Part shown: piece by piece, positions 12,560-41,949 of the stretch
Layout: each line of letters opens with the position of its first letter
How positions within the stretch are numbered: the stretch's first letter is position 1
IMG/VR virus record: IMGVR_UViG_3300021962_000025
Coordinates: 1 to 64,000 of that record
Source of the DNA: a virus
Length of the DNA stretch: 64,000 nucleotides
Reading direction: 5' to 3' (one strand)
Notes under the pieces: model-generated
The model's database searches: none
What the model was told of the DNA's origin: nothing
What the model saw: the letters and a program-made list of their open reading frames with translations, nothing else
Made by a program: the position numbers and the translations under genes

Positions 12560-13198
12560 ATGAAAATTAAACTGACAGAGTCTCAATTAATAAATATCAT
12601 CAAGGAAGAGGATATTTCATCTGTCGACGCATTTGGTAAACTATTAGATAAGATCGCATTTTTATCTACAGACGCCGATGCCCCTATGTCCGATGAAGAC
12701 AAAGAAACATTTCTTGATCTTCTCGATAATGGTCAGATAAACCCAAACTTCGACCCTGAGTCCGCATCTCCCGAGAGTTTTAAACAAATAGACATGCTTC
12801 CTTTAGTTGATACTAAAGTGAATAGTCCTTATGGTCCGAGGAGTATCGGTGGGGGTGCTAGTAAGAATCATGGTGGTGTAGATTTAAGTGCTAAATCAGG
12901 AACTGAAGTTTATAGTGTTGCTAATGGGACTGTGGAGGCCGCTAAAGATACAACACCGAATGGGTGTGGGGGATTTGTCAAAATAAACCACGGGGAATAC
13001 CAAACAAAATACTGTCACCTTAAAAAATGGTCGGTAAAAGAGGGGGATTCGGTGGTTAAAGGTCAGCTTATTGGTTGGTCGGGTGGTGCATCAAATGACC
13101 CATTTAAAGGTAATTCTATGGGGGCTCACTTACACTATGAAGTTTTGCGAAACGGTAAAAACATTAACCCCGCAAACGTTCACGACGAATTGGCATAA
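12560..13198 (+). CDS. M23-family metallopeptidase (peptidoglycan endopeptidase), probably virion-associated
   Basis: HGGVD (HxxxD), 'TKYCHL', 'V.KGQLIG', 'GAHLHYEV' (HxH); N-terminal MKIKLTESQL. Confidence 0.92.
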   Translation: MKIKLTESQLINIIKEEDISSVDAFGKLLDKIAFLSTDADAPMSDEDKETFLDLLDNGQINPNFDPESASPESFKQIDMLPLVDTKVNSPYGPRSIGGGASKNHGGVDLSAKSGTEVYSVANGTVEAAKDTTPNGCGGFVKINHGEYQTKYCHLKKWSVKEGDSVVKGQLIGWSGGASNDPFKGNSMGAHLHYEVLRNGKNINPANVHDELA

Positions 13199-13245
13199 AC
13201 TTTTGTATAAATTCCTATAATTATAGTTGTTCACACTATAATATT

Positions 13246-13482
13246 ATGGAAATAATTGATTTTTATTATGACGAAGACGAACAAAAATTAGATGTTCGTT
13301 TCACCACCGATCCCGAAAGTGATTTTTATAGAACAGTTTCTCTAACCTTAGAAGATATACTTTACTATACCCCAATAATAATAGATGAAGAAGATCTGTT
13401 AGATTTAGAAGAAGATTTTATTATTGAATTGTTGGTAGAATACTATAGGGAAAACGATTTACCCGAAGAGGAACTATTCTAA
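13246..13482 (+). CDS. small highly acidic hypothetical protein
   Basis: ORF; about one third D/E. Confidence 0.55.
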   Translation: MEIIDFYYDEDEQKLDVRFTTDPESDFYRTVSLTLEDILYYTPIIIDEEDLLDLEEDFIIELLVEYYRENDLPEEELF

Positions 13483-13483
13483 C

Positions 13484-14074
13484 TTACTCTCCCTTAGTTG
13501 CGTACTTGACACCCATTATTGTGCCGATAATACTAAATGAGTTGGTTAATAAGATACCAAACAAGTTGGACCACGTTGATTCCACAATTGCGGATTCCTT
13601 ACCAGTAATCAGGGTGTACCAAAATAAACATGTGGTTAATAGTCCAACCCCTATAATAACATAAAGGGCGACTTTAACTATTTTACCCATTAATTCAAAT
13701 TGGGTTCGTTTTTGTAAGCTGTCTAAATCTTCTAACGCTCCGTCTCTTAGTTTTTCAGCCTCATCCCTTAAGATTTCCGCATTTTTTCTGGCTAATTCAG
13801 TTGTGTGTAACGATTCTTTTAATTCTTCATTGATTCTCTTATTCTCTTTATTTAAGATAACCAATTCGTTATTTTGACTTTGTACTTGTTTAGTGATTTC
13901 TAATCTCTTTCTGCGAGATTCGTTATCACGTTTTTTACATTGGTCTATGTATTCTTTAAAATCGGCATCGTCATCATCGGGGACAATTAATTTTATAATA
14001 TTACCTTCTAGAAATACTTTCTTTTCTTTAGATAATTTAATAAGTGAATCCCTATCTGATTTGGATAATTTCAT
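13484..14074 (-). CDS. coiled-coil protein with two C-terminal TM helices
   Basis: Heptad-rich centre; hydrophobic 'VALYVIIGVGLLTTCLFWY' and 'LFGILLTNSFSIIGTIMGV'. Confidence 0.75.
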   Translation of the reverse strand: MKLSKSDRDSLIKLSKEKKVFLEGNIIKLIVPDDDDADFKEYIDQCKKRDNESRRKRLEITKQVQSQNNELVILNKENKRINEELKESLHTTELARKNAEILRDEAEKLRDGALEDLDSLQKRTQFELMGKIVKVALYVIIGVGLLTTCLFWYTLITGKESAIVESTWSNLFGILLTNSFSIIGTIMGVKYATKGE

Positions 14075-14081
14075 TAGTTAA

Positions 14082-14519
14082 TTATTTGTAGATCTTGAAT
14101 GGTGCGGTTTTGTTTTTGTACCCATCATAATCTTTTTTAAATTCTTCTAAACGAGGTTCGATATCGTCTGATTTTATAATCCAAAATTGAGCACCTACCT
14201 CTTTAGCTTTAACAATTTCTAATTCATCTTGTGAAGAAGATATGATTCCAATAACACAACCATTACCATACTCGGTGTTTATTTTTCGTATCATCTCAAT
14301 ACCGTCGAAGGTAGAGCCAATGATGTTTAAGTCAACAAATACACATTCGGGACGCTCGTGGTTCGGGTCGTCTGGAAACCACTTTTTAAATAATTTATCG
14401 GCCTCATCAGAGGAATCGATTGCCTCAATTGATAATGCCATGTCCAATAAAGAACATGCATCTTCAAATACTAAATGAAATAGATTCTCATCATCAATTA
14501 ACATTAGTGTATCTATCAT
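14082..14519 (-). CDS. single-domain response regulator (CheY-like receiver)
   Basis: LMLIDD acidic pocket, VFVDLN phospho-Asp, ISSS, IIKS Lys; no output domain. Confidence 0.88.
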   Translation of the reverse strand: MIDTLMLIDDENLFHLVFEDACSLLDMALSIEAIDSSDEADKLFKKWFPDDPNHERPECVFVDLNIIGSTFDGIEMIRKINTEYGNGCVIGIISSSQDELEIVKAKEVGAQFWIIKSDDIEPRLEEFKKDYDGYKNKTAPFKIYK

Positions 14520-14527
14520 GGTTTTTT

Positions 14528-15796
14528 TTAATTTATTTTTATTTTTATTTTAGTTCCATTTTCAGTTTTTTCCGCCTCAACACTAAAACCATGTTCCTTC
14601 AAGATTTCGATACAGATATTTAAACCTAATCCCGTACCCTCCTCTTTTTGGTTTTGTCTTCTAGTATATGGTTTGGATAGATAGATGAACTCTTCATTGG
14701 TGAGTCCCCTACCATTATCTTCTATAATTATCTCTTTATTCCCTTCTTCACTAACAACTAAATAAATTTTTACCCACTTTGTTGATGAATCGTTATACTT
14801 AAGTCCATTTCTAATTAAATTATCAATGGCGGTACAAAAAAGGGCTTCGTTCACCTCTATAGATTCAGGTAAATTATTATCTAAATGTACTTGATTAGAG
14901 TATGCGGTTAATTTCAAATATTCAGAAAGTATGTTCTTTACATTACAATTAGATTTTGACATTTGGGCATTCTGTTTTACTAAATTTGTAAACTCGTACA
15001 CCCCCGCATAAACCTTTCTTGCGTGTGACAATCCATCTTCTATTAGTTTTAATGGGGACCCAATCTTTAAAGATAAAATCTGTTCTTCGGTTAATCTTCT
15101 TTTTAGTGAAGTTATACCTCTAGGTATGTATGTGTTGATTCCTGAGTGCATGTCATGCCGAATGATCTTCGACGCGTGTTCTAAATAAACCGATTTTTGT
15201 TGGACTTTCATCTCAGCCTCGTGTTGTTGTGTAACATCTGTGGCTATTTTTAAAACTGCGTCATAAACTCCTTCTTTGTTTTTTATAGGAGTATAATTAC
15301 CAAACAACCAAACACTTTTTCCGTCCTTACCTACTCTTTCAAATTCACCACTTACGTTAATACCACTTTTTAATTGATCCCAAAATTCAATATACTCTAT
15401 ACTATTTTTATATTTTTCACTAACTAATTTACTATGGTGTTGCCCAATTAATTCGGACTCAAGATAACCAATAGAATTACAAAAGTTTTTATTCGCAGAT
15501 ATAAGTTTACCTGACATATCTAGTTTAACCACTAAGTTTGCCGTGTCTATCGCATCTAATTGGATATTAATATTTTCTTCTTTTTGTTTTGTTATCTTTA
15601 AGAAGTCTTTTACAACATAAAAAAATGGGGGCATAAAGGCAATTACCGATAACCATTCAAAGTAGTGAGTAAATGTTGAGTGGTGGATGTATCTAAAAAC
15701 AACTAAAGTTTTAAATACAAAAAAGGTAATCATGATGGTCGCAGCAACTATTAAACACATTCCCGCGGCTTTTGATATGCTTAATGACCTAACCAT
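14528..15796 (-). CDS. membrane-anchored PAS/PAC sensor histidine kinase
   Basis: 2 TM; PAS 'ISANKNFCNSIGY..SELIGQHH', PAC 'KDGKSVWL..NYTPI...KIATDVT'; H-box 'RHDMHS', N-box 'NLIRNGLKYN', G1 'EDNGRG', G2 'GTGLGL'. Confidence 0.93.
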   Translation of the reverse strand: MVRSLSISKAAGMCLIVAATIMITFFVFKTLVVFRYIHHSTFTHYFEWLSVIAFMPPFFYVVKDFLKITKQKEENINIQLDAIDTANLVVKLDMSGKLISANKNFCNSIGYLESELIGQHHSKLVSEKYKNSIEYIEFWDQLKSGINVSGEFERVGKDGKSVWLFGNYTPIKNKEGVYDAVLKIATDVTQQHEAEMKVQQKSVYLEHASKIIRHDMHSGINTYIPRGITSLKRRLTEEQILSLKIGSPLKLIEDGLSHARKVYAGVYEFTNLVKQNAQMSKSNCNVKNILSEYLKLTAYSNQVHLDNNLPESIEVNEALFCTAIDNLIRNGLKYNDSSTKWVKIYLVVSEEGNKEIIIEDNGRGLTNEEFIYLSKPYTRRQNQKEEGTGLGLNICIEILKEHGFSVEAEKTENGTKIKIKIN

Positions 15797-15984
15797 TACA
15801 GTTCTGATTTACCTAAACCTAATTTTTCGAATACCCATTTTGATGGGCAGAACTTAGTCCACACCCCGATATTCAACATAACAATAACGAATACTACGAT
15901 CCACCATTCATTTAATAATAATCCTGTGAGCAATACCAATGACATTAAGAGGTATACCGCTCGTATTGAAGTCCATTTTTTCAT
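15796..15984 (-). CDS. small membrane protein, DUF2892/YgaP-like
   Basis: Two hydrophobic helices and 'WTKFCP...LG' motif. Confidence 0.65.
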   Translation of the reverse strand: MKKWTSIRAVYLLMSLVLLTGLLLNEWWIVVFVIVMLNIGVWTKFCPSKWVFEKLGLGKSEL

Positions 15985-15996
15985 AGTTTTTTTTTA

Positions 15997-16125
15997 TTAG
16001 ATCATTGAAATTGTTTGAAAAAAGGCAACGACTAATCTTATCCAAAACCTACGATACCATTTTAATTCTTTAAACTTAGGGTCGTTAAACATATCTTCGG
16101 GGGTGTCGTATACTTTATATTCCAT
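15997..16125 (-). CDS. 42-aa protein not in ORF track (MEYKVYDTPEDMFNDPKFKELKWYRRFWIRLVVAFFQTISMI)
   Basis: Hand-translated; first gene downstream of TATTTAT at 16143-16149, leading the kinase operon. Confidence 0.55.
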   Translation of the reverse strand: MEYKVYDTPEDMFNDPKFKELKWYRRFWIRLVVAFFQTISMI

Positions 16126-16207
16126 AACATATTAATTTATATATAAATATTGGGTCATATAGTAAATGGGGTCGCAACAATTATCCTTTTGTGGGATATT
16201 TATGTGT

Positions 16208-16579
16208 ATGAGTTTTTTAGATAAGAATAAACAGAGTAAAATTGTGGAGTTCGTTAAGTTCGTAAAGAACGAATTGGGACTTAAAAAAACCCCCACCATT
16301 AAACTATTAAATGGTAGGGGCGATCTTAAGACAACGGCACATTACAACTACTCAAACCCTGAAAAAATCATCAAGGTGAATGCAAAAAATCGTCACATAG
16401 TTGATGTGATGAGAAGTATTGCCCATGAAATGGTTCACCACAAACAATGGGAAGACGGAAAATTGGATGGACCCAAGCCACCGGACATTGGTGGTGAAAT
16501 AGAAGACGAGGCGAATGCTAAAGCGGGTCAGTTCATTAAATTGTTTTCCAAGGAGGATTCAACAATTTATGACGAGTGA
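16208..16579 (+). CDS. HExxH zinc-metalloprotease-like protein
   Basis: 'SIAHEMVHHKQ' and downstream 'EDEANAKAG'; start reassigned to ATG 4 nt after TATTTAT. Confidence 0.7.
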   Translation: MSFLDKNKQSKIVEFVKFVKNELGLKKTPTIKLLNGRGDLKTTAHYNYSNPEKIIKVNAKNRHIVDVMRSIAHEMVHHKQWEDGKLDGPKPPDIGGEIEDEANAKAGQFIKLFSKEDSTIYDE

Positions 16580-16950
16580 TTTTTATTAATCACTCTATTA
16601 ATCTCATCGTAAATCCTTAGAGTTAGTTCTTCGTACCCCCGATCAAATTTAAACTTATCCTGATGAACTTTACACGAATGTATTATCGTGGCGTGGTCTC
16701 TGTCTAATATACTTCCTGTTTGGGAGTATGTATACCCAAATTTGTATCTCATTATATAAGAGAATATTTGTCTCGAATCTACAATTCGACTAAATCGTTG
16801 TTTAGAGGTAATCTCATTTATAGTAACGTCAGATTCTTCACAAACAATCCTTAAAATATCTAATGGAGATATGGGTAGTTTTTTGGACATTCTACTGCGT
16901 ATTCTTAAGTTCGGATCAATACCGGGATAAATGTAGGGACTTAGTTTCAT
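16567..16950 (-). CDS. stand-alone DnaA C-terminal (domain IV) DNA-binding domain protein
   Basis: 'ITSKQRFSRIVDSRQIFSYIMR...SQTGSILDRDHATIIHSCK' matches DnaA domain IV signature (RQIAMYL...IG..F.RDHTTV.HA). Confidence 0.82.
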   Translation of the reverse strand: MKLSPYIYPGIDPNLRIRSRMSKKLPISPLDILRIVCEESDVTINEITSKQRFSRIVDSRQIFSYIMRYKFGYTYSQTGSILDRDHATIIHSCKVHQDKFKFDRGYEELTLRIYDEINRVINKNHSS

Positions 16951-16951
16951 G

Positions 16952-17527
16952 TTAAAATCGATGTAGTTTAATCTCTAAATGGGACTCTATGGCTTTATCG
17001 TATTGGTTACCTCCCACCATAATGTTCGTGTAAAACACTTGGGAGGTTAGTGTAAGAACGTTAGAAGGCATTGCCCCATAGGTATCCAAACTAAACGTGT
17101 ATCTTGTCTTAGAACCTTCGTAATCGGTTTCTATGACAGTCGACTCTGTACAATATATACAAGGAAACCAAACATACATCTGTTCATTAGAAAGATCATC
17201 GGTAATTAGTAACATGTTATAGTCGAATTCCCACTTAGTTGTGGTGATATCGAATCTCCTATTAATCACAGTATTCTCAAAATCTTGGGAAAGAATGAGT
17301 TCATTGTTAGGGGTAACCCCTGTAACAATGAAATTACTAACCGCAGCTCTATCGTGGTCAAGTACCACAACATCACTATCGTAATTAACCTTATCTATCA
17401 CCACATTAATGTCAACGACATCCCACCTACCATTAAGATTTAATTGGGGGTTACTGGGTTGTTCATATACTTCACAACTAAAAAGAGAGTGAAGAAGTAT
17501 AAGTAAAACAAAAAGTGACTTTTTCAT
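16952..17527 (-). CDS. lipoprotein, lipocalin-like
   Basis: Lipobox LFSC; 'LNGRWDV' lipocalin-like GxW motif. Confidence 0.65.
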   Translation of the reverse strand: MKKSLFVLLILLHSLFSCEVYEQPSNPQLNLNGRWDVVDINVVIDKVNYDSDVVVLDHDRAAVSNFIVTGVTPNNELILSQDFENTVINRRFDITTTKWEFDYNMLLITDDLSNEQMYVWFPCIYCTESTVIETDYEGSKTRYTFSLDTYGAMPSNVLTLTSQVFYTNIMVGGNQYDKAIESHLEIKLHRF

Positions 17528-19486: not shown

Positions 19487-19517
19487 TAGGAATAAAATAT
19501 TTATATAAAAAAAGACA

Positions 19518-27282: not shown

Positions 27283-27486
27283 TTACAATATGTTCCATAG
27301 TCTCGGTTTTTTAATTCGAAACCATATCGGTATAGTTTTAATTATTAAGAACCACTTAATTCTTTTCACCATACTATATAAATAATACAAAAAAAATTTA
27401 GATTAATCAACAGAGTTTATCTTGATTTTAAGAACTATTTATAGTTAAGACCTTAAAAAGTCTAATAAAAAGTAAAAAAGAGAGAC

Positions 27487-27726
27487 ATGGCATTTAAAGA
27501 CATTTTTAAAGACAAGAATGATTACAATGAAAAATCTATTGTGGGTTTTGCATCATTCGCAGTAATGGTATTATTCGCAGTTGCGGATTTGACCACAGGT
27601 TATTTTGGTAAAGACCTCGTTATTAACGAGTTTATTTACAATTCATTTGTGGTAATAACACTTGGATCTTTTGGTATTGCTGAAGTAGGTAAAGTTTTCG
27701 GTAAGAAGGATTCAACAGAAGAATAA
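27487..27726 (+). CDS. holin-like two-TM membrane protein
   Basis: Two TM helices, directly upstream of endolysin. Confidence 0.55.
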   Translation: MAFKDIFKDKNDYNEKSIVGFASFAVMVLFAVADLTTGYFGKDLVINEFIYNSFVVITLGSFGIAEVGKVFGKKDSTEE

Positions 27727-27737
27727 AGAAAAAAATC

Positions 27738-28661
27738 ATGTTATTAAAAGTAGGATCAAAAGGAGAACTCGTAAAAGATGTTCAGGAAGTTGTTGGGGTT
27801 ACCGCAGATGGTGTCTTTGGACCTGGTACAGAAGCGGCAGTAAAAAAATGGCAATCAGCAAACGGATTAACTGCCGATGGAATTGTTGGTAATGCAACAT
27901 TAGGGAAGATGGGATTGTTAGACACGGATAGATCTATTAGTGAATCTATTCCTGAAGCTTCTTCAGGTTTGTACACTAAAAAAACATACACATCCCCTAA
28001 TGGTATTGAAGTGATTGAGTATTTCATGCCAAAAGACGAGTATTTGAAGGGTCCAATTAAACCCGAATGGTTATTCTTACATCACACCGCGGGTTGGCAT
28101 AACCCGTATAACACAATTAAATCGTGGGATGCGGATAAAAGTGGTCAAATTGCCACAGAATTTGTTTTAGGTGGACAATCTGTAAAGGGTAACGATGATC
28201 AGTATGATGGTATATTAGTACAAGCATTTCCTAAAGGAAACTATGCGTGGCATTTAGGTAAGAACGGATCACAGACGATGCATAAAAACTCTGTAGGTAT
28301 CGAAGTTTGTAATTTTGGATACGTTGTTAACGGAAAGACCTACGCGGGATCAACCGTAGATGAATCCCAAATTGTTAAATTGTCAAAACCATTTAGAGGT
28401 CATACTGATTGGCACAGATATTCTGATAAACAGATTGAGGTTTTACATAAGTGGATTCTTTGGATTGCGGAAAGAGACGGTATCGATGTAAGAGCTGGGT
28501 TACCCGCATTAGTTAAGAAAAACGGGGCGGACGCTTTCGAGTTTAATGACGACGCTTATTATGGTAAAGTTAAAGGTCTTTGGACCCATACTAATACAAG
28601 AAAAGATAAGGTTGACATGTTCCCTCAACAAGAGTTGATGGATATGTTAGTGAGTCTATAA
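27738..28661 (+). CDS. endolysin: PG-binding domain + N-acetylmuramoyl-L-alanine amidase (Amidase_2-like)
   Basis: 'ADGVFGPGTEAAVKKWQSANGLTADGIVG..T'; 'LHHTAG', 'SVGIEVCN', 'WTH...RKDK.D'. Confidence 0.9.
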   Translation: MLLKVGSKGELVKDVQEVVGVTADGVFGPGTEAAVKKWQSANGLTADGIVGNATLGKMGLLDTDRSISESIPEASSGLYTKKTYTSPNGIEVIEYFMPKDEYLKGPIKPEWLFLHHTAGWHNPYNTIKSWDADKSGQIATEFVLGGQSVKGNDDQYDGILVQAFPKGNYAWHLGKNGSQTMHKNSVGIEVCNFGYVVNGKTYAGSTVDESQIVKLSKPFRGHTDWHRYSDKQIEVLHKWILWIAERDGIDVRAGLPALVKKNGADAFEFNDDAYYGKVKGLWTHTNTRKDKVDMFPQQELMDMLVSL

Positions 28662-28808: not shown

Positions 28809-30824
28809 TTAAATGAGGGGAAGATTTTTGGAAATTTCCAAATTCCCCTCTTTTATTTTTAACAAGATCTCCACATTTTCTACAATATTACCCATCAAAA
28901 TTTCATCACTTATAAAATCTTCACATAGATTTTGAATAATTCTTTTGATTGGTCGGGCACCATACTCTTCCTCAGAATTAAGTTTCAAAATTTCGTCATA
29001 AACGGTTTTGTCAAAAGTTATTTTATAAGAATTCTCGTTTAACCTATTAATTAAAGACTGTAGTTCAATCTGTACGATTTTTCTTAGAGATTTATCATCT
29101 AACTTGTTGAAGACGATTATATCATCTACCCTATTTAAGAATTCTGGTGAGAATTGTTGCTTCAAAGACTTCTTTATAATTGAATCTCTTACTTTTTCTT
29201 GGTTATTATCGTTTGTGAACCCGACACCACCACCAAAATCAGATACTTTCTTAGCACCAATATTTGATGTCATAATAATCAGAGTGTTTGTGAAATTAAC
29301 TTTCCTACCAAAAGAATCGGTTAAGTGACCTTCATCCAAAATCTGTAGTAGAATGTTAAAGACATCCTTATGTGCCTTTTCAATTTCATCAAATAAAACA
29401 ACGGAGAATGGATTGTTTTTTATCTTCTCCGTCAATTGACCACCTTCGTCGTATCCAACGTACCCGGGAGGAGACCCAATCAAACGAGAAACATTATGTT
29501 TTTCCATAAACTCACTCATATCGACCCTAATAATTTTTTCAGGATCCCCAAAAAGTGTTTTAGCTAATGTTTTGGCTAAGTGTGTTTTACCAACACCGGT
29601 AGATCCTAAAAACATGAATGACCCAATGGGTTTATTTGCGTTTTTAACACCGACTCTGTTTCTTCTTATTGATTTTGAGATTTTAGAAACCGCATCGTCT
29701 TGACCAATAACATTTTTAGAGATGGTTTTTTCTAACGATAATAAAGATTTACTTTCTTTGGTGTCCAATTTTGAGATTGGTACTCCCGTCATGGAGGTAA
29801 TGAGATTATAAACATCCTCAACACTAATCTCTTTTCTGTTTACTTGTTGTTCGTCGTTCCATTTTTTCTTTTCTGACTCCAACTTTTTGAGGACCTTCTT
29901 TTCTTCATCTCTGAGTTGTGCCGCCTGTTCATAGTCTTGACTTTTTACGACCTCTAATTTTCTTGTTTTGATTTTCTCCGATTCCTTTTTTAACTTCTCA
30001 ATAGAGTCGGGAATCTTCACATTTATTTTTTTCTCAGAACCTAATTCATCCAAAACGTCAATCGCCTTATCGGGAAACTGTTTATCAGTAATATATCTTT
30101 TACTAAGGGATACGATAGTTTCGATAACATTAGAATTATAAGAAACCCTGTGAAACTCCTCATATGAAGGTTTTAAGTTGTAAAGAATATCAATTGTTTC
30201 ATCCACAGTGGGTTCGTTAAGTATAATTTTTTGAAATCTCCTTACCAACGCACCATCTTTTTCAATGTTCTTTTTGAATTCATCAAATGTTGTGGCACCA
30301 ATACATTGAATTTCTCCTCGAGCCAATGCGGGTTTTAAAATATTCGCAGCATCCATAGACCCCGACGCATTACCCGCACCAACCATAGTGTGAATTTCGT
30401 CTATAAAGACAATTACGTTTGGGGCTTCCTGTAGTTCATTTAAGATAGCTTTAATTCTCTCTTCAAACTGTCCCCTATACTTTGTACCTGCAACTAAAGA
30501 TGTGAGGTCTAAGGACATTATTCGTTTATCCAGTAGATTGGTGGGACAGTTACCGTTTGTAATTAGTAGGGCTAACTTTTCTACTAACGCAGATTTACCC
30601 ACACCCGCGTCACCAACGATGACAACGTTATTTTTCTTTTTCCTTGATAGTATTTGGGCTATTCTCATAACCTCCTTACCCCTACCTATGATAGGATCTA
30701 TCAACCCCTCACTCGCCAATCGAGTGAGATCCCTTGAGAAGTTATCGAGTACTGGTGTATTAGACCCTCTCTTACTTTTTCTCTGTTGTGATGGTGACCC
30801 ACCTTCAAAAAAATCCACGGACAT
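28809..30824 (-). CDS. clpC: ClpC-like AAA+ unfoldase lacking the N-terminal Clp-repeat domain
   Basis: Two AAA modules (GDAGVGKS, FIDEIH; GSTGVGKT, LFDEIEKAH), UVR middle domain 'VKSQDYEQAAQLRD', ClpP-docking-type 'VGF' loop. Confidence 0.9.
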   Translation of the reverse strand: MSVDFFEGGSPSQQRKSKRGSNTPVLDNFSRDLTRLASEGLIDPIIGRGKEVMRIAQILSRKKKNNVVIVGDAGVGKSALVEKLALLITNGNCPTNLLDKRIMSLDLTSLVAGTKYRGQFEERIKAILNELQEAPNVIVFIDEIHTMVGAGNASGSMDAANILKPALARGEIQCIGATTFDEFKKNIEKDGALVRRFQKIILNEPTVDETIDILYNLKPSYEEFHRVSYNSNVIETIVSLSKRYITDKQFPDKAIDVLDELGSEKKINVKIPDSIEKLKKESEKIKTRKLEVVKSQDYEQAAQLRDEEKKVLKKLESEKKKWNDEQQVNRKEISVEDVYNLITSMTGVPISKLDTKESKSLLSLEKTISKNVIGQDDAVSKISKSIRRNRVGVKNANKPIGSFMFLGSTGVGKTHLAKTLAKTLFGDPEKIIRVDMSEFMEKHNVSRLIGSPPGYVGYDEGGQLTEKIKNNPFSVVLFDEIEKAHKDVFNILLQILDEGHLTDSFGRKVNFTNTLIIMTSNIGAKKVSDFGGGVGFTNDNNQEKVRDSIIKKSLKQQFSPEFLNRVDDIIVFNKLDDKSLRKIVQIELQSLINRLNENSYKITFDKTVYDEILKLNSEEEYGARPIKRIIQNLCEDFISDEILMGNIVENVEILLKIKEGNLEISKNLPLI

Positions 30825-35988: not shown

Positions 35989-36000
35989 TATTTATAGGAT

Positions 36001-41870: not shown

Positions 41871-41949
41871 AGAATTTTTCTGTGATTAGTATATCATAAT
41901 CTTAATTTTTCTGAAATAATAGATATTTATAATAAAACCAAATAAAAAA

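Follow-up and report, generated by a model that had tools for sequence, protein, structure and literature searches.

A phage-encoded histidine kinase and receiver that may tune lysis through a widespread family of coiled-coil membrane proteins

The window analysed here, a stretch of 64,000 nucleotides (positions 1 to 64,000 of IMG/VR virus record IMGVR_UViG_3300021962_000025), carries on its minus strand a close-packed operon of five open reading frames (ORFs; 16125-13484), which encodes two small proteins (pep42 and tm62), a histidine kinase, a stand-alone receiver and a coiled-coil membrane protein of 196 residues (CC196). All five ORFs were found where a first-pass annotation of the sequence had placed them, with intergenic gaps of 12, -1, 8 and 7 nucleotides; the stop codon of tm62 overlaps the start of the kinase gene by 1 nucleotide. 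The whole record is 183,758 bp long and estimated to be 59% complete, and its viral origin is evident from the large terminase, portal and gp23-like major capsid protein that it encodes. A tmRNA and a ClpC-like ATPase are also present. Among cultured phages the capsid protein is closest to those of T4-like phages of Microcystis, Rhodothermus and Flavobacterium, all of them distant. The source of the window is an uncultured marine T4-like jumbo phage of at least 184 kb. The GC content is 0.31-0.39 across the window and 0.32-0.34 over the operon, and a blastn search with positions 13000-17000 returned no match among deposited phages. Relatives of the operon were found by back-translated pattern scans of IMG/VR with the kinase and CC196 as baits, and 98 kinases, 89 receivers and 93 CC196 proteins were aligned.

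The kinase (422 residues; 14528-15796, minus strand, as for all features of the operon given below) begins with two transmembrane (TM) helices joined by a loop of about 10 residues (approximately residues 10-64, 15605-15769), followed by a PAS domain (residues 88-196, 15209-15535), a DHp region with His214 (15155-15157) and a catalytic ATPase domain (residues 320-421, 14534-14839). Pfam HATPase_c matched at E 1e-15 (58.3 bits against a cut-off of 26.4), PAS_9 matched at E 6e-11, above its curated cut-off, and PAS_3 was above its cut-off too; the Pfam HisKA model gave no match to the window kinase at E <= 0.1. The closest solved kinase core is that of Thermotoga HK853 (E 4e-10), and the register of this alignment puts His214 at the phospho-histidine. 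Across the 98 relatives, which are non-redundant, the H-box (YLEHA.KIIRHDMHSGINTY, containing His214) is invariant or nearly so, the motif R-H214-D-M-H-S-G-I-N around the histidine is conserved, and the N, G1 and G2 boxes show no variation in their core residues. The kinase is thus intact, as had been read from the window at first pass.

The PAS domain finds its best solved relative in the FAD-PAS (PAS-A) of MmoS (3EWK, E 2.1e-16), followed by the PAS of Aer (8DIK, E 3.5e-7) and by LOV domains (E 2.7e-4 or weaker), and the model for NifL matched as well. The earlier impression of an Aer-type PAS agrees with these relatives, and by sequence the domain belongs to the clade of flavin-binding redox sensors of the MmoS/NifL/Aer type. 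This input is dispensable in the family, because in 18 loci the kinase, of about 300 residues, consists of the two TM helices and the catalytic core alone, one locus encodes a 2TM-GAF-PAS kinase and four encode soluble PAS-PAS kinases. The receiver and CC196 stay constant while the kinase input varies among these forms.

The receiver (145 residues; 14082-14519) scored 32.8 bits with Pfam Response_reg (cut-off 30.2). Its residues D9, D10, D63, S94-96 and K116 are invariant in 41 aligned sequences, with a mean column identity of 81%, and Asp63 (14331-14333) is the predicted phospho-acceptor. The AlphaFold2 model shows the (beta-alpha)5 fold (pLDDT 90.1, pTM 0.85), in which a conserved C-terminal extension forms an extra short strand. 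Both Pfam and the model find a receiver domain alone in the 145 residues. The receiver is therefore intact and has no output domain, which bears out the earlier description of a kinase-receiver pair lacking a DNA-binding output. A Foldseek search with the model retrieved the stand-alone partner receivers of phytochromes (6XVU, 1K68, 1I3C and 4ZYL) and CheY with probability 1.00. Receivers of this kind act through the binding of other proteins.

CC196 (13484-14074), the candidate output of the pair, consists of an N-terminal domain (residues 1-76, 13847-14074), a predicted coiled coil and a TM hairpin (residues 132-190, 13505-13681) with hydrophobic helices at 132-150 and 171-189. Its model (pLDDT 83) has a small N-terminal helical domain, a single unbroken helix from 37 to 157 and a return helix from 162 to 192, so that the coiled coil runs straight into the first TM helix; the description of the last gene as a coiled coil with two TM helices is thereby upheld. 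Hardly any variation is seen in the second TM helix, in which small and polar residues abound. The family is very large, with 5222 clusters at 90% identity in a large protein database; among the 120 clusters listed, all are metagenomic, none has a Pfam domain and most are labelled hypothetical, and some members lie on contigs as long as 343 kb. Searched by profile against 1.84 billion representative proteins, the family proved closed, with 247 clusters (50% identity clusters) at E <= 0.001. A protein atlas search with CC196 returned only its own viral family, and a Foldseek search of viral models returned a single family member, from an uncultured phage. Among 50,697 deposited phage records, tblastn found no match to CC196 and only weak partial matches to the kinase (22-40% identity, several of them on short or host-like records).

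The two small proteins precede the kinase. pep42 (42 residues with a hydrophobic C-terminal tail; 15997-16125) is conserved in relatives and present in 74 fetched loci (43 distinct sequences). tm62 (62 residues; 15796-15984), a candidate kinase accessory with two hydrophobic helices, carries an invariant C-P-S-K motif and occurs in 16 of the 18 loci whose kinase has no PAS. The label 'DUF2892-like' that it had been given is only weakly borne out: the window protein itself does not match YgaP-like_TM (PF11127, formerly DUF2892), but 11 of 22 relatives do at E <= 1, all below threshold (best 1.9e-4). tm62 also has a weak match to DUF4395 (E 0.017).

Relatives of the operon are numerous: at least 592 IMG/VR stretches carry a relative of the kinase and at least 462 a relative of CC196. 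In the 154 loci fetched from the two scans the order kinase-receiver-CC196 and the strand were identical from either bait, the count of fetched viral loci with this order being about 145, at 50-67% identity, and none of the fetched viral loci long enough to hold all three genes was without any one of them. The genes that flank the operon vary, those of the window recurring in one locus only. The three genes are thus kept together, the point of gene-neighbourhood conservation on which the first-pass annotation had allowed its proposal to fall. The median pairwise ratio of non-synonymous to synonymous substitution (dN/dS), from comparisons in which synonymous sites are near saturation, was lowest in the operon for the receiver (0.08), followed by tm62 (0.17), CC196 (0.20), the kinase (0.22) and pep42 (0.36).

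These data bear on the possibility, named at first pass as a ground for refutation, that the phage has only lately acquired the region from a host and does not use it, or carries it as a passenger in decay. Bacterial-looking contigs do carry a related kinase-receiver pair (57% and 64% identity, respectively), which makes an origin in cells plausible. Purifying selection together with saturated synonymous sites and invariant catalytic residues, however, rules out a recently captured, drifting fragment; the numbers of kinase and CC196 relatives in IMG/VR and of CC196 clusters count against it as well, the GC content of the operon matches that of the rest of the window, and a scan for the receiver across 185,579 species genomes found six contigs only, all of them in metagenome bins. 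We consider a functionless fragment scarcely credible. Two contigs from metagenome bins of unrelated bacterial phyla carry a cassette with a full CC196. One, in a Verrucomicrobia bin (L157), is probably a phage contig, because it has T4-type split topoisomerase II genes; the other, an 89-kb contig in a Bdellovibrionota bin (L158), has PrkA and SpoVR genes.

The profile search also revealed a few members of the CC196 family with other architectures. Three proteins (P0169, P0173 and P0156) have one or two PAS domains, and a fourth (P0150) a GAF domain, joined directly to a coiled coil and TM hairpin of the CC196 type. In P0169, P0173 and P0150 this part is 42-51% identical to that of the window protein, and the fused sensors have counterparts among the cassette kinases: the PAS-PAS of P0169 shares 50% identity over 260 residues with that of a soluble kinase in an ordinary cassette (L134), and the GAF of P0150 shares 50% identity over 246 residues with that of another cassette kinase (L155). 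No kinase or receiver was called on the fetched contigs of the fused genes, which are 1.6 to 12 kb long.

The N-terminal domain is swapped in the opposite sense. Residues 1-76 of CC196 share 50% identity with the beginning of P0259, and P0235 and P0261 begin alike; in all three the CC196-type N-terminal domain is followed by a HisKA/HATPase_c core. Such fusions follow a kinase and a receiver on bacterial-looking contigs (L165:179-2523, L166 and L160:3100-6481; GC 0.40-0.41) with YceI, AraC-type, AP-endonuclease and DUF7151 neighbours, in a Bacteroidetes metagenome bin and beside P0235. The first kinase of this set is a 2TM protein of about 300 residues in L165 and has 634 residues in L160; the kinase of about 300 residues is 57% identical to the core of the window kinase, and the receiver (143 residues) is 64% identical to that of the window. 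The phage cassette may descend from this cellular set of three genes, which may itself form a relay of three proteins. Fusions of the family to a FecCD permease (P0194), an RNA-polymerase fragment (P0161) and a glycosyltransferase (P0165) were each seen in one cluster, possibly as artefacts of assembly or gene calling, and were not used.

Judged from these architectures, the CC196 effector module is interchangeable between two-component and one-component input. The same sensors feed either the relay or the coiled coil directly, and the N-terminal domain keeps company with the receiver. Most simply, then, the receiver once phosphorylated would bind to the N-terminal domain, with the hairpin acting as effector. 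Gene order and the swaps thus point to CC196, proposed as the likely output already at first pass, and we are fairly confident that it is the output of the relay.

A different target for the receiver would leave CC196 an independent neighbour: the receiver might act on a host protein or another phage protein, such as a host kinase or an adaptor of motility or proteolysis, or might serve as a phosphate sink. Its conservation, by far the highest in the operon, would be expected of a protein with several partners; stand-alone receivers of such fold have diverse partners, and the phage-encoded ClpC-like ATPase and tmRNA would fit this alternative as well. The constant company of kinase, receiver and CC196 in viral loci argues against it. 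So do the bacterial-type cassettes, where the CC196 N-terminal domain follows the receiver even when it is joined to a kinase core, and the fused forms, where kinase and receiver are missing together and the sensors are joined directly to the CC196 hairpin. We regard another target as improbable.

What CC196 might do as an output is suggested by its surroundings in the relatives, where the cassette mostly lies within lysis clusters. The gene families beside cassettes include a PG_binding_1/Amidase_2 endolysin, an M15 endolysin, an endolysin-like protein (phrog_33083), several small TM proteins and a holin-like family of 140 residues (f3; Phage_holin_4_1 at E 5e-4, phrog_199 holin at E 2e-4). 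A frequent order is small TM protein, endolysin, pep42, holin-like gene, tm62, kinase, receiver and CC196. Of 98 distinct cassettes, 53 have an endolysin no more than five genes away and 46 a holin-like gene, and an endolysin is present in 21 of the 44 loci with full context. The stop and start codons of cassette genes overlap those of the upstream endolysin or holin-like gene in relatives (in many, the pep42 start and the endolysin stop share the sequence TAATG), indicating shared transcription units with both. Three unrelated types of endolysin adjoin cassettes, on either side, which argues for a retained linkage and not for one inherited arrangement.

The one-component forms have the same kind of neighbours. 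In three separate lineages they lie 0-5 genes from GH19 or M15 endolysins: the PAS-PAS fused form two genes before a GH19 endolysin, the GAF fused form five genes before a GH19 endolysin and a glucosaminidase, and the single-PAS fused form (P0173) overlapping the start of an M15 endolysin. Small type-II coiled-coil membrane proteins and small lipoproteins, spanin-like by sequence, are also found beside them.

Further membrane proteins occur in or near the cassettes of relatives. A protein of about 165 residues with multiple TM helices and a C-terminal coiled coil (f9; for example L056:7681-8175) is encoded between the receiver and CC196 in 38 loci, and a TM/coiled-coil family of about 370 residues (f7; for example L059:8259-9368) often just downstream of the cassette. 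Homologues of f7 and f9 were not found in the 184-kb record, which is about 59% complete. In seven fetched loci, with three distinct sequences, a compact 7-TM rhodopsin of 192-193 residues is inserted between receiver and CC196 (L104:5412-5987, L043:8177-8758 and L048:8185-8766; order kinase-receiver-f9-rhodopsin-CC196), one of them on a viral contig of 297 kb. It matches Pfam Bac_rhodopsin (E 3.8e-12), and its closest solved relatives are proteorhodopsin (E 1.4e-9) and the viral rhodopsin OLPVRII. Helix C reads R-Y-x-D-W-x-x-T, helix G has D-x-x-x-K with the Schiff-base lysine, and the proton-donor position is apparently Gln. With a rhodopsin in such an operon of signalling and lysis genes, light or membrane energy might serve as an input.

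In the window itself the cassette is detached from its customary partners. An M23 peptidase, a cell-wall hydrolase, is encoded two genes from CC196 (12560-13198, plus strand; Pfam Peptidase_M23, E 3.5e-25). It matches PHROG endolysin and peptidase families and could be a lysin or a virion-associated enzyme. The main endolysin, of the PG_binding_1/Amidase_2 type (27738-28661, plus strand), is preceded by a TM protein of 79 residues (27487-27726, plus strand). This pair, which in many relatives directly precedes the cassette, sits here between a tRNA array and the gene of the ClpC-like ATPase (28809-30824, minus strand), and its endolysin is 75% identical to the cassette-adjacent endolysin of a relative (L096).

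Several of our observations weigh against the reading that the relay controls lysis through CC196. The endolysin pair of the window (27487-28661) lies 11 kb from the cassette, and for 39 of the 98 distinct cassettes no lysis gene was recognised up to five genes away, many of these being on short contigs. The assignment of f3 as a holin is below threshold (the Phage_holin_4_1 match given above), and no f3 homologue was found in the 184-kb record; because the record is about 59% complete, this does not mean that f3, or f7, is absent from the phage. Common descent accounts for part of the synteny among the relatives, and the loci therefore cannot be counted as separate events. CC196 has no match in Pfam, PHROG or NCBIfam, and therefore lies outside all holin and antiholin families of the PHROG library, with no match to a spanin family either; a PHROG scan of CC196, the receiver and the small proteins likewise found no lysis-inhibition family, RI and RIII included. 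In a Foldseek search of the PDB at E <= 0.001 the CC196 model found nothing, and only generic helical hairpins (ATP synthase c subunits, DgkA) beyond it. Finally, the P0261 contig carries the fusion of N-terminal domain and kinase without an adjacent receiver.

Part of this evidence would suit a relay that controls CC196 as a non-lytic effector, acting in superinfection exclusion, ion flux and membrane potential, or envelope remodelling, with the proximity to lysis genes reflecting no more than a shared block of late membrane genes. The distance to the endolysin in the window, the cassettes lacking a nearby lysis gene and the failure of CC196 to match any holin family all agree with such a role, and the proteorhodopsin-like gene between receiver and CC196 in seven relatives would point to membrane energetics in general. 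A shared late block does not readily account for three non-homologous endolysin types beside the cassette on either side, for the one-component forms embedded in lysis clusters of three separate lineages, or for the stop-start overlaps with endolysin and holin-like genes, and we judge a non-lytic effector to be unlikely. Of the four roles listed in the first-pass annotation (lysis timing, lysis inhibition, superinfection exclusion and cross-talk with host regulators), lysis timing is thus the one favoured by context in the relatives, but the cassette of the window itself lies away from the main endolysin.

On balance we favour the interpretation that the operon is a phage phosphorelay that tunes lysis through a holin-like or antiholin-like CC196, by which the phage would probably time the bursting of its host according to a sensed signal. 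The kinase would be anchored in the inner membrane by its two helices, possibly with tm62 and pep42 as accessories, and would sense either the state of the membrane through these helices or the redox or energy state of the host through its flavin-type cytoplasmic PAS. The invariant catalytic residues suggest autophosphorylation on His214 and transfer of the phosphate to Asp63 of the receiver. Having no output domain, the phosphorylated receiver would dock on the N-terminal domain of CC196, as gene order and the domain swaps suggest. The signal would then pass along the coiled coil, continuous with the first TM helix, to the hairpin and change the assembly of CC196 with itself or with a holin. 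Formation of the hole, and thus release of the endolysin, would shift to an earlier or later time, as the lysis-gene context implies.

The two TM helices of CC196 are compatible with a holin, and its 196 residues and cytoplasmic part of 130 residues exceed those of typical holins. We have a slight preference for a regulator of the antiholin or pro-holin type over a sole holin, because separate small holin-like genes usually accompany CC196. A role as a spanin was considered and rejected: CC196 has no signal peptide, and its soluble part can be replaced by PAS or GAF domains, which are cytoplasmic sensors, so that this part should face the cytoplasm. As a more tentative proposal, CC196 and its sensor-fused relatives could form a new class of signal-gated membrane effectors, in which a cytoplasmic sensor (PAS or GAF domains in cis, a phosphorylated receiver in trans) would act on the coiled coil to open or close a TM-hairpin pore.

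Upstream of the operon, where a motif had been noticed at first pass, lies TATTTATA (16142-16149, minus strand), a candidate phage promoter element 17 nucleotides before the first ATG. The window contains 20 copies against 9.9 expected, 12 of which are placed 4-44 nucleotides upstream of a called start on the same strand, as are about 4% of all positions. The sites include 35989-35996, 19498-19505, 41924-41931 and 27436-27443 (all on the plus strand), and the genes behind the motif include that of the terminase large subunit (36001), the small TM gene before the endolysin, and others. The motif is also found upstream of stand-alone cassettes in relatives. It is a real signal of the source phage associated with gene starts, and may be a promoter element with very short leaders. 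Beyond it, a strong hairpin followed by a T-run (CCCCTACCAT...ATGGTGGGG TTTTTTT; 16283-16320, minus strand) has the form of a terminator for the minus strand but falls within the plus-strand ORF 16166-16579; either the true start of this ORF is further downstream than the called one, or both strands make use of the hairpin.

The timing of lysis sets the burst size and fitness of a phage and, at sea, the timing of carbon release from bacteria. T4 lysis inhibition, holin/antiholin pairs and the other mechanisms known to adjust this timing use dedicated small proteins and not a signalling cascade. If our interpretation is true, phages use phosphotransfer of the bacterial style to work out, from signals inside the cell or in its membrane, when the host is to die. 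If the gated-pore proposal is also true, the cassette would be the first virus-encoded phosphorelay that acts post-translationally on a membrane lesion; abundant aquatic Bacteroidota phages would time the death of their hosts by host redox or energy state, and light would be a possible input in those relatives with a rhodopsin inserted in the operon. A function is thereby proposed for a very large family of unnamed, Pfam-less proteins of aquatic metagenomes. The swappable inputs, constant output and one-component form would also offer synthetic biology a compact switch from sensor to membrane, and the hypothesis can be tested directly. In the literature, of which our coverage is incomplete, we came upon no account of a two-component system in the lysis cluster of a phage, and the only mention in a review of jumbo-phage genomics (PMC7824862) is of a receiver variant unrelated to this one. 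We consider it somewhat more likely than not that in this cassette a phosphorelay owned by the virus, together with an effector family not described before, places phage lysis under the control of a signal.

The nearest functional parallel, by analogy, is lysis inhibition in T4, where the antiholins RI (periplasmic) and RIII (cytoplasmic) hold back the holin T upon superinfection (PMC8385771, PMC11413866). As in T4, we propose post-translational control of lysis timing by a sensed signal through a protein that acts on the holin, and RIII acts from the cytoplasmic side, the same side as proposed for the soluble domain of CC196. Unlike the phage cassette, T4 uses no phosphorelay, RI itself being thought to sense superinfection in the periplasm; CC196 has no sequence relation to RI or RIII, and the input of the cassette is a modular kinase (PAS, GAF or TM-only).

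A two-component system tied to the holin/antiholin-like proteins LrgAB/CidAB is known in staphylococci as LytSR (PMC2996381, PMC5717393). The phage cassette, on our interpretation, would resemble it in coupling a two-component system to holin/antiholin-like membrane proteins, and LytSR is also coupled to membrane energisation. LytSR is host-encoded and controls transcription through a DNA-binding LytTR regulator. The phage receiver, in contrast, has no LytTR output, and the phage kinase lacks the multi-TM sensor of LytS.

In its components the relay resembles class I (HisKA-type) kinases with a single-domain receiver, such as Thermotoga HK853-RR468, as well as CheY and the phytochrome-partner receivers Rcp1/RcpA/DrBRR, a class for which output by protein-protein contact is the rule. 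It differs from this class in being virus-encoded and in having as its putative target a TM-hairpin protein of no known family, and its sequence identity to these proteins is 14-23%. The PAS domain of the kinase is, by its relatives, like those of MmoS (PAS-A), Aer, NifL and LOV proteins but, unlike them, is missing from 18 related cassettes.

Sensory genes of bacterial type have been described in phages before: the Clostridioides difficile phage phiCDHM1 carries agr genes that include the histidine kinase AgrC (PMC3901668), and phage quorum-sensing receptors have been reviewed (PMC7790227). The cassette resembles phiCDHM1 in bringing such genes into a phage genome. phiCDHM1 reportedly has no cognate response regulator, and its agr genes are said to match the host pathway. 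The cassette described here appears, in contrast, as a closed unit of kinase, receiver and effector, the effector being specific to the virus.

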